Positions 17,767 through 17,815 of a stretch of DNA of 64,000 nt are shown one piece after another. Every line of letters begins with the position of its first letter. Position 1 is the first letter of the stretch. The stretch is from sequence record PV464739.1, one strand, 5' to 3'. Under the pieces are notes generated by a model that saw only the letters and a list, made by a program, of their open reading frames with translations, did not search any database and had not been told where the DNA came from. A program made the translations under genes and the position numbers. The stretch is from Escherichia phage RCIP0363.

Positions 17767-17815
17767 ATAGACTCCTTATAGATTATAATTTGTTGATCAG
17801 ATATAAGGAGTCTAT
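17767..17815 (+). promoter_or_regulatory. 14-bp perfect inverted repeat that sequesters the SD of the next gene
   Basis: Left arm ATAGACTCCTTATA 17767-17780, right arm TATAAGGAGTCTAT 17802-17815. The right arm contains the SD AAGGAG and abuts ATG 17814. Confidence 0.5.

Follow-up and report, generated by a model that had tools for sequence, protein, structure and literature searches.

How is a gene translated when its ribosome-binding site forms one arm of a perfect inverted repeat? The question is raised by a 60-nt gap in the tail module of Escherichia phage RCIP0363 (PV464739.1), of which a stretch of 64,000 nt, referred to here as the window, was analysed. The first-pass annotation of this DNA had read the repeat as a hairpin in the mRNA of a baseplate hub gene, which would bury the SD and dose the hub protein relative to the upstream tail proteins. 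Here we describe a sigma70-type promoter within the same hairpin, overlooked in that annotation, and propose as the probable reading that the point at which a transcript starts decides whether the gene behind the hairpin is translated.

Anatomy of the gap before the spike gene

The window is 96–98% identical to Wifcevirus genomes (for example, Ro157lw, WFH, ECML-117 and FEC19), which belong to E. coli/Shigella myoviruses of 66–72 kb. From 13755 to past 22555 its genes are packed end to end or overlap, and apart from the 60-nt gap with the hairpin, the tail/baseplate module has no sizeable intergenic space. The gene after the gap encodes the spike and not, as first annotated, the hub: its protein matches Pfam PF18352 (phi92 gp138 N-terminal domain, E 3e-15), its orthologues in relatives are labelled 'baseplate spike' or 'baseplate assembly protein V' (gpV-like), and the hub proper sits two genes upstream (16414–17232; PF22759, E217 gp41 family, E 2e-114). 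The ATG at 17817 is the likely start of the spike gene, favoured by its alignment with the ATGGC in all relatives and by its 5-nt SD spacing. The spike stop and the start of the wedge gene (Baseplate_J) share ATGA at 18539–18542. The features of the region are listed below.

13697..13726, + strand: nearest strong upstream promoter-like site, TTGACT-18-TATAAT (11/12), at a position homologous to P016/P017 of Pseudomonas phage 14-1
17235..17756, + strand: upstream gene, 173 aa, PHROG 4774, weak match to a tail assembly chaperone; stop TAA at 17754–17756
17725..17732, + strand: candidate strand of an outer helix, CUGCCAUU, within the 3′ end of the upstream ORF; predicted to pair with GAUGGCAG in the MFE structure of the long RNA
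17761..17766, + strand: −35 element TTGCTT, aligned with TTGATT/TTGATC/TTTACT of relatives
17767..17780, + strand: left arm (anti-SD) ATAGACTCCTTATA, covering 14 nt of the 17-nt promoter spacer
17784..17789, + strand: −10 hexamer TATAAT, within the hairpin loop; invariant in 11 aligned relatives
17795..17797, + strand: predicted transcription start, a conserved GAT 6–8 nt past the −10, assigned by analogy with 14-1
17802..17815, + strand: right arm TATAAGGAGTCTAT, including the SD AAGGAG at 17806–17811
17817..18542, + strand: central baseplate spike gene, 241 aa, with a phi92 gp138-like N-terminal domain; in-frame alternative ATG at 17814

After the upstream stop codon, which lies 10 nt before the left arm, the segment 17757–17819 thus reads aata TTGCTT ATAGACTCCTTATA gat TATAAT ttgttgatcaga TATAAGGAGTCTAT g ATG. 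Read directly from the sequence, the two 14-nt arms are 100% complementary and enclose a 21-nt loop, in agreement with the first-pass annotation, and an exact-match search found the 14-mer at only these two places in the window. Perfect inverted repeats of at least 14 bp (loop 3–60 nt) number two in the window, against 0.02 expected per window from 150 dinucleotide shuffles. The right arm, which had been described as containing the SD and adjoining the start codon, does contain it and ends on the first two bases of the in-frame ATG at 17814.

In RNA, the stem grows by two more pairs (U17766–G17816 and U17765–A17817), and an inner 5-bp extension brings it to ~20 bp, with a bulge. A folding-energy calculation, proposed in the first-pass annotation as a check, gave −26.7 kcal/mol for RNA 17757–17830 (z = −5.68), a value equalled by 0 of 200 shuffles; the antisense strand folds less strongly (−19.0 kcal/mol). 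In folds of longer RNA, an outer helix between CUGCCAUU (17725–17732) and GAUGGCAG (17816–17823, including the spike AUG) is predicted to stack beneath the main hairpin. A scan of 17500–18100 against Rfam 15 returned a single chance-level match (E 3.7), far under the gathering score.

The promoter consists of TTGCTT (17761–17766), a 17-nt spacer and TATAAT (17784–17789); an alternative −35 register, ATTGCT at 17760–17765, gives an 18-nt spacer. The site at 17761–17789 was not among the calls of a consensus promoter scan of the window, because its −35 matches TTGACA at only 3/6 positions; the same scan scores the homologous promoter at 10/12 in both the relative L023 and MyoSmar. Similar promoters (TTTACT/TTTGCT/TTGACT, 16–18 nt, TATAAT/TATACT) lie 25–35 nt upstream of the ATGs of many window genes. 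Since the left arm forms the promoter spacer, transcripts of the internal promoter would not carry the anti-SD arm. Judged from the position of the promoter elements, the main spike mRNA probably starts inside the hairpin, at ~17796, without the left arm.

Transcripts that enter the gap from upstream are suggested by two observations, namely the contiguous genes and a terminator scan of the + strand from 14101 to 17767, which returned no terminator-like site. Their likely source is the promoter-like site at 13697–13726. A literature search for Wifcevirus transcription data returned none.

The two kinds of transcript differ strongly in the predicted cost of opening the translation start. Opening positions −15 to +4 at the spike start costs 22.7 kcal/mol in read-through RNA versus 5.8 kcal/mol in promoter-proximal RNA, modelled with a start 7 nt past the −10. 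No other start among 94 predicted genes of the window is as occluded as that of the spike gene (19.0 kcal/mol; median 6.4, sd 3.1, next highest 14.5). The short RNA (17796–17880) folds like shuffled sequence (z = −0.29), so that promoter-proximal transcripts have a 20-nt leader that is predicted to be unstructured, with AAGGAG free.

Conservation and covariation in related phages

Across eight Wifcevirus genomes, none of the sites in the 60-nt gap varies, against 11.9% of sites in the flanking ~2 kb. The longest invariant run of this region (122 nt, 17712–17833) contains the gap and both strands of the outer helix.

Homologous regions were collected from annotated phages, from contigs with spike homologues at 80, 71, 63, 61 and 58% identity, and from scans of IMG/VR and metagenomes with the spike alignment. 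The relatives fall into two groups. P2-like elements of ~40 kb lack the gap, their spike gene overlapping the gene before it, whereas a clade of 65–73 kb myoviruses (Wifcevirus, Myosmarvirus, Pantoea phage Kyle, Pbunavirus and many uncultured contigs) has a gap of 50–75 nt. The equivalent promoter in the relatives has a TTTACT/TTGATT-type −35 located 17 nt from TATAAT, again with GAT 6–8 nt past the −10, whereas other intergenic positions vary freely among the 11 aligned relatives.

For the analysis of covariation we used 27 distinct loci with spike identities of 40–100%, in all of which the promoter is conserved. RNAalifold on 11 relatives yielded no consensus structure, because the register of the arms shifts within the spacer from lineage to lineage, and for this reason cognate and non-cognate duplexes were compared instead. 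At each locus, the segment from the stop codon to the end of the −10, which the internal promoter leaves untranscribed, was paired with the leader and start codon. More than 12 unrelated arm sequences occur among the 27 loci, with complementarity kept; eight of the arm pairs are given below.

TTGCACCCA / TGGGTGCAA: arm pair in a relative
AATGGCCTCTTG / CAAGAGGTCATT: arm pair in a relative
TGTCCACATCTG / CAGGTGTGGACA: arm pair in a relative
ACCTCTTACAGTA / TACTGTAAGAGGT: Kyle-like arm pair
CCATTATAAT / ATTATAATGG: MyoSmar arm pair; here the −10 serves as left arm, and the AUG is covered by the right arm
TCTCTCCCGGTG / CACCGGGAGAGA: arm pair in a relative
CTCCATGAC / GTCATGGAG: arm pair in a relative
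GCACCCGCT / AGCGGGTGC: arm pair in a relative

Mean duplex energy was −17.8 kcal/mol for cognate and −10.3 kcal/mol for non-cognate pairs (permutation p<5e-5; Mann–Whitney p = 8e-8). The cognate pair ranked first or second among the 27 candidate 5′UTRs in 20/27 loci, and in 15/27 under a stricter count that also demanded first or second rank among the 27 upstream segments; in 6–7 of the 27 promoter-bearing relatives, the duplex test found no pairing above background. Pairing probability peaks at −13 to −3 from the AUG on one side and in the promoter spacer on the other, in stems that in the relatives measure 7–17 bp. In the helices of the closer clade, G–U pairs outnumber A–C mismatches by 16:3, a ratio that favours an RNA of the transcribed sense strand. 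The cost of opening the start averages 14.4 kcal/mol in the long and 7.1 kcal/mol in the short RNA over the 27 loci (Wilcoxon p = 5e-8). The original suggestion that the hairpin would bury the SD in the mRNA therefore holds in silico for the long RNA, with an opening cost of 19–23 kcal/mol in the window and a pairing kept by covariation.

Two further observations concern the same junction in individual relatives. In the ~40 nt preceding the spike gene of two metagenomic relatives (L062 and L123), the conserved TATAAT ends just 6 nt before the ATG (cgtgttcgaTATAATcgacggATG); judged from this spacing, their spike mRNA would have little or no leader, so that the junction would be solved in another way. 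In Pseudomonas phage LBL3 (L201), the wedge gene (ORF42), which directly follows the spike gene, has a variable run of 9–10 G at its start (3395–3403), for which the GenBank record notes subpopulations and a putative frameshift.

Transcription of the homologous gap has been mapped in Pseudomonas phage 14-1 (Pbunavirus), where ONT-cappable-seq placed the start of promoter P018 at 28318 (+) (Putzeys et al. 2024, PMC10914365; bioRxiv 10.1101/2023.10.13.562163 supplement). According to that supplement, the sequence upstream of the start ends in ...GGGCCTGGGAAGGCTATACTAGACCTGC, and its table assigns P018 to the sigma70 class and tags it as experimentally validated ('this work') (10.1101/2023.10.13.562163). 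The main text reports significant GFP expression from P018 in a P. aeruginosa reporter assay (PMC10914365). In the same data set, transcription unit TU018 spans gp42 (spike) and gp43 (wedge), and mapping gave no termination site from 6661 to 35525 (10.1101/2023.10.13.562163). A CTGGG motif in the Pbunavirus gap, considered as the mark of a phage-specific promoter class, was rejected because the supplement lists P018 as sigma70.

On the 14-1 sequence, the P018 start falls 8 nt past TATACT and 19 nt before the ATG of a spike that shares 50% amino acid identity with that of the window. In the long RNA of 14-1, UGGGAAGGCU, upstream of the start, pairs with GGCUUUCCCA at the SD/AUG in a predicted hairpin of −21.3 kcal/mol, and opening costs 11.5 kcal/mol in the long versus 5.3 kcal/mol in the short RNA. 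The two loci share a homologous gap between the upstream orthologue and the spike gene, a sigma70-type −10 equally far from the ATG, a start (mapped in 14-1, predicted in the window) within a predicted hairpin, and a unit of spike and wedge. They differ in that the stem of 14-1 is shorter (~10 bp) and its spike and wedge genes do not overlap. The available text of the 14-1 paper is silent on a hairpin or a translational consequence (PMC10914365).

These data change the place of the hairpin in the model. It had been assumed to be part of the working mRNA, an assumption at odds with the invariant TATAAT in its loop and the −35 located 17 nt upstream. A transcript 5′ end inside the hairpin, named in the first-pass annotation as evidence that would overturn its reading, is what the 14-1 start at 28318 represents in the homologous gap.

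A probable start-site-dependent switch and competing explanations

The sequences show the anatomy, conservation, covariation and energetics described above; that transcripts from upstream cross the gap and are silenced there is what we infer. The reading that we consider probable is that a promoter embedded in an RBS-occluding hairpin makes spike translation depend on where the transcript starts, as in the switch of the T4 gene e type. Read-through transcripts from the tail genes would hold both arms and form a hairpin of ~−27 kcal/mol over the SD and start codon, and such folded RNA would not allow ribosomes to initiate at the spike start; given the overlap of the spike stop with the wedge start, the wedge gene would perhaps be blocked as well. 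RNA made from the internal promoter (~17796) would not carry the left arm, would present a free AAGGAG and would be translated. The spike/wedge block would thus be translated solely from its own promoter, insulated from upstream tail-gene transcription. Of the dosing relative to upstream tail proteins that was first suggested, this reading keeps a start-site-dependent switch on read-through RNA and drops constant attenuation, and the gene concerned is the spike. The reason for such insulation could be the dosing of a three-copy spike against abundant tail messages, or the order of baseplate nucleation.

Translational coupling, in which ribosomes arriving from upstream would melt the stem, was considered and rejected: in the window and its relatives, the stop codon lies at least 10 nt before the left arm, with the −35 in between. 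Given this stop-to-arm distance and the size of the ribosome footprint, a terminating ribosome would reach only the first pair or two.

A constitutive attenuator, as in the first-pass annotation, would place the hairpin in the sole spike mRNA, where it would lower output relative to the tail proteins and the TATAAT of the loop would be inactive. Such a model draws on the very stable hairpin over the SD and on the weak −35 of the window, uncalled by the scan. It seems to us improbable, as the −35, the 17-nt spacing and the −10 are kept in relatives in which the rest of the gap changes, the homologous promoter has a mapped start and reporter activity according to the 14-1 report, and an opening cost of ~20 kcal/mol would nearly abolish, rather than tune, translation of an essential structural gene. 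A role in RNA processing or stability is unlikely, although several features point towards it. Here the hairpin would be an RNase III site or a stem protecting the 3′ end of the upstream message, and its overlap with the SD would be incidental to the short gap: the window stem reaches ~20 bp with its inner 5-bp extension, two other promoter-spanning hairpins in the window leave the SD uncovered, and the 5′UTR is too short to escape overlap. However, stems of 7–17 bp in the relatives are short for the enzyme and the ~20 bp of the window requires a bulge, so that a helix of about two turns (~20 bp or more) is not conserved among the relatives. Pairing also peaks at the SD/AUG and not at the 5′ end of the leader, the Myosmarvirus right arm lies on the AUG, far from the promoter, and Myosmarvirus lacks the other promoter-spanning repeat that was compared.

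Covariation alone cannot tell RNA from DNA hairpins, the arms flank the −10 symmetrically enough, and three perfect repeats in the window embrace −10 boxes, all of which would suit an element acting in DNA, either an operator bound by a dimeric regulator or a cruciform that would modulate the promoter by exposing or concealing the −10. We judge such an element very improbable. The arms are unrelated between relatives and among the three sites of the genome, which leaves no common protein site, and a shared protein operator was rejected on these grounds. Loops of 10–25 nt disfavour cruciform extrusion. The 16:3 excess of G–U over A–C indicates one transcribed strand, and the sense fold (−26.7 kcal/mol) is stronger than the antisense fold (−19.0 kcal/mol). 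Least credible of all is an intrinsic terminator closing the upstream tail operon: a stable hairpin does stand just after the stop codon, but it has no U-tract, the next bases (GAUGGCAGAAAAG) are the start of the coding sequence, the terminator scan does not report it, and mapping in 14-1 found no termination site from 6661 to 35525.

A switch set by the start site thus accounts best for these observations, within a limit imposed by the leader. At only ~20 nt, it is so short that any promoter-spanning hairpin necessarily overlaps the SD, and SD targeting is therefore not fully separable from a hairpin that simply spans the promoter. Among 14 promoter–gene pairs tested in the window, TIR occlusion was found only at the spike site; the genes at 38908, 60151 and 36683 have above-background promoter-embedded duplexes with the SD uncovered. 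Promoter-spanning hairpins may have another or an additional role, because two further promoter-spanning repeats leave their TIRs open. One of these, at 38927–38967 (minus strand; gene 38462–38908), is a 13-bp perfect inverted repeat (TTCTGCTTCAATG / CATTGAAGCAGAA) around the −10 of TTTGCT-17-TATACT; its left arm lies in the spacer and its right arm runs from the predicted transcription start to 5 nt before the SD. It is identical in four other Wifcevirus genomes, and no distant relatives of the 38908 gene were found in IMG/VR. The other, at 36705–36738 (minus strand; gene 36000–36683, a FabG-like reductase), is a 12-bp perfect inverted repeat (CGTTTCGATGAG / CTCATCGAAACG) spanning the −10 (TATATT) of a TTTACT-17 promoter. 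At the Myosmarvirus homologue of 36683, the promoter is kept (TTGACT-17-GATAAT) and the hairpin is not. A general rule of promoter-embedded complementarity in the genome is not established, as the hairpin at 36683 is unconserved and the 38908 gene is without distant relatives.

Three other regions of the window carry repeats of their own. The 565-nt non-coding region 2886–3451 is densely filled with direct and inverted copies of GATACGGATGATA / TATCATCCGTATC, among them a 14-bp perfect inverted repeat at 3081–3141; the copies flank a very AT-rich core (~3170–3235) just upstream of a 472-aa gene at 3451, and the region may act as an origin, as a packaging site or as a stretch that binds protein at several sites. 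Between 57044 and 57720, similar leaders (..TATATCGAGACGGG / TATATCGAGAGGGATGAGGTAGCGAATAGGTCGCTACC) follow three promoters close to consensus (TTTACT-16/17-TATAAT/TATACT at 57071 minus, 57116 plus and 57692 plus); these repeated units of promoter and leader possibly represent early promoters or small RNAs. At 55573–55610, 18 nt past the end of ORF 54887–55555, a 12-bp perfect inverted repeat with a 14-nt loop (ATGGCCCTAGAA / TTCTAGGGCCAT) might be a terminator or a processing hairpin.

Significance and relation to known systems

Phages of Wifcevirus and Pbunavirus are used for O157 detection and Pseudomonas therapy. In the gap before the spike gene, promoter, anti-SD and RBS overlap as one unit, which matters for both annotation and engineering. 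Any construct in which the spike/wedge/fibre genes are moved, promoters are swapped or the upstream gene is recoded would show sharply altered expression if it left out the left arm, or if it kept the arm and left out the promoter. Two selective pressures would act on the promoter spacer, one for spacing in the DNA and one for complementarity to the SD in the RNA, and the more than 12 independent arm sequences make the locus a clean natural case of strong covariation.

We tentatively extend the proposal to the clade as a whole. The spacer that doubles as anti-SD could be an ancient translational insulator of the ~65–73 kb myoviruses related to Wifcevirus, Myosmarvirus, Kyle and Pbunavirus, one that makes the spike/wedge/fibre block autonomous within a continuously transcribed tail operon. 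With the two further hairpins, it might reflect a general rule in fast, sigma70-driven phages that, in contrast to T4, use host-type promoters and no early/late sigma switch, in which the start site sets the fate of the transcript. Our literature search found no published description of the promoter–hairpin element of the window.

The closest known systems are the T4 genes e (lysozyme), soc, 49 and I-TevI, and mobE of Aeh1, whose early read-through transcripts carry TIR hairpins; a late promoter inside or beside the region encoding the 5′ strand yields translatable transcripts, and relatives retain these hairpins together with a promoter in the upstream strand (PMC3014915). As in these genes, the long RNA of the window is predicted to sequester the SD/AUG, and a promoter in the region of the 5′ strand and loop would yield a translated RNA without the 5′ strand. 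In silico, the locus has the occluding hairpin in the long RNA, the accessible TIR in the short RNA, and a hairpin and promoter that are conserved while the sequence is free to change. The T4 genes differ in their gp55-dependent late promoter (TATAAATA) and in early-versus-late timing, whereas the window has a full sigma70-type −35/−10, the 14-1 homologue of which is active in uninfected cells according to the 14-1 report. In the window, moreover, the promoter spacer itself serves as the anti-SD, the gene encodes a baseplate spike within a structural operon, and there is no sequence homology to the T4 genes.

A similar 'fold-back' reportedly shields the transposases of IS10/Tn10 and IS50/Tn5 from outside read-through. 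There, transcripts from outside are said to hold the complement of the RBS and to stay untranslated, and transcripts from the element's own promoter to start inside the repeat and be translated; the difference is that the transposons would guard against host promoters, whereas the phage operon would insulate a gene block from its own upstream genes. In IS200 tnpA, 30S binding is blocked by a 5′UTR stem-loop that takes up the SD directly (PMC4513863); in this and similar constitutive SD-sequestering stem-loops both arms lie within the working mRNA, whereas the left arm of the window is predicted to lie upstream of the transcription start. Together, these comparisons suggest that the spike gene follows the same logic as the T4 genes, with a host-type promoter, a spacer that serves as anti-SD and a structural gene in a tail operon as its new elements, and that the T4 lysozyme paradigm extends to host-type promoters and structural genes.
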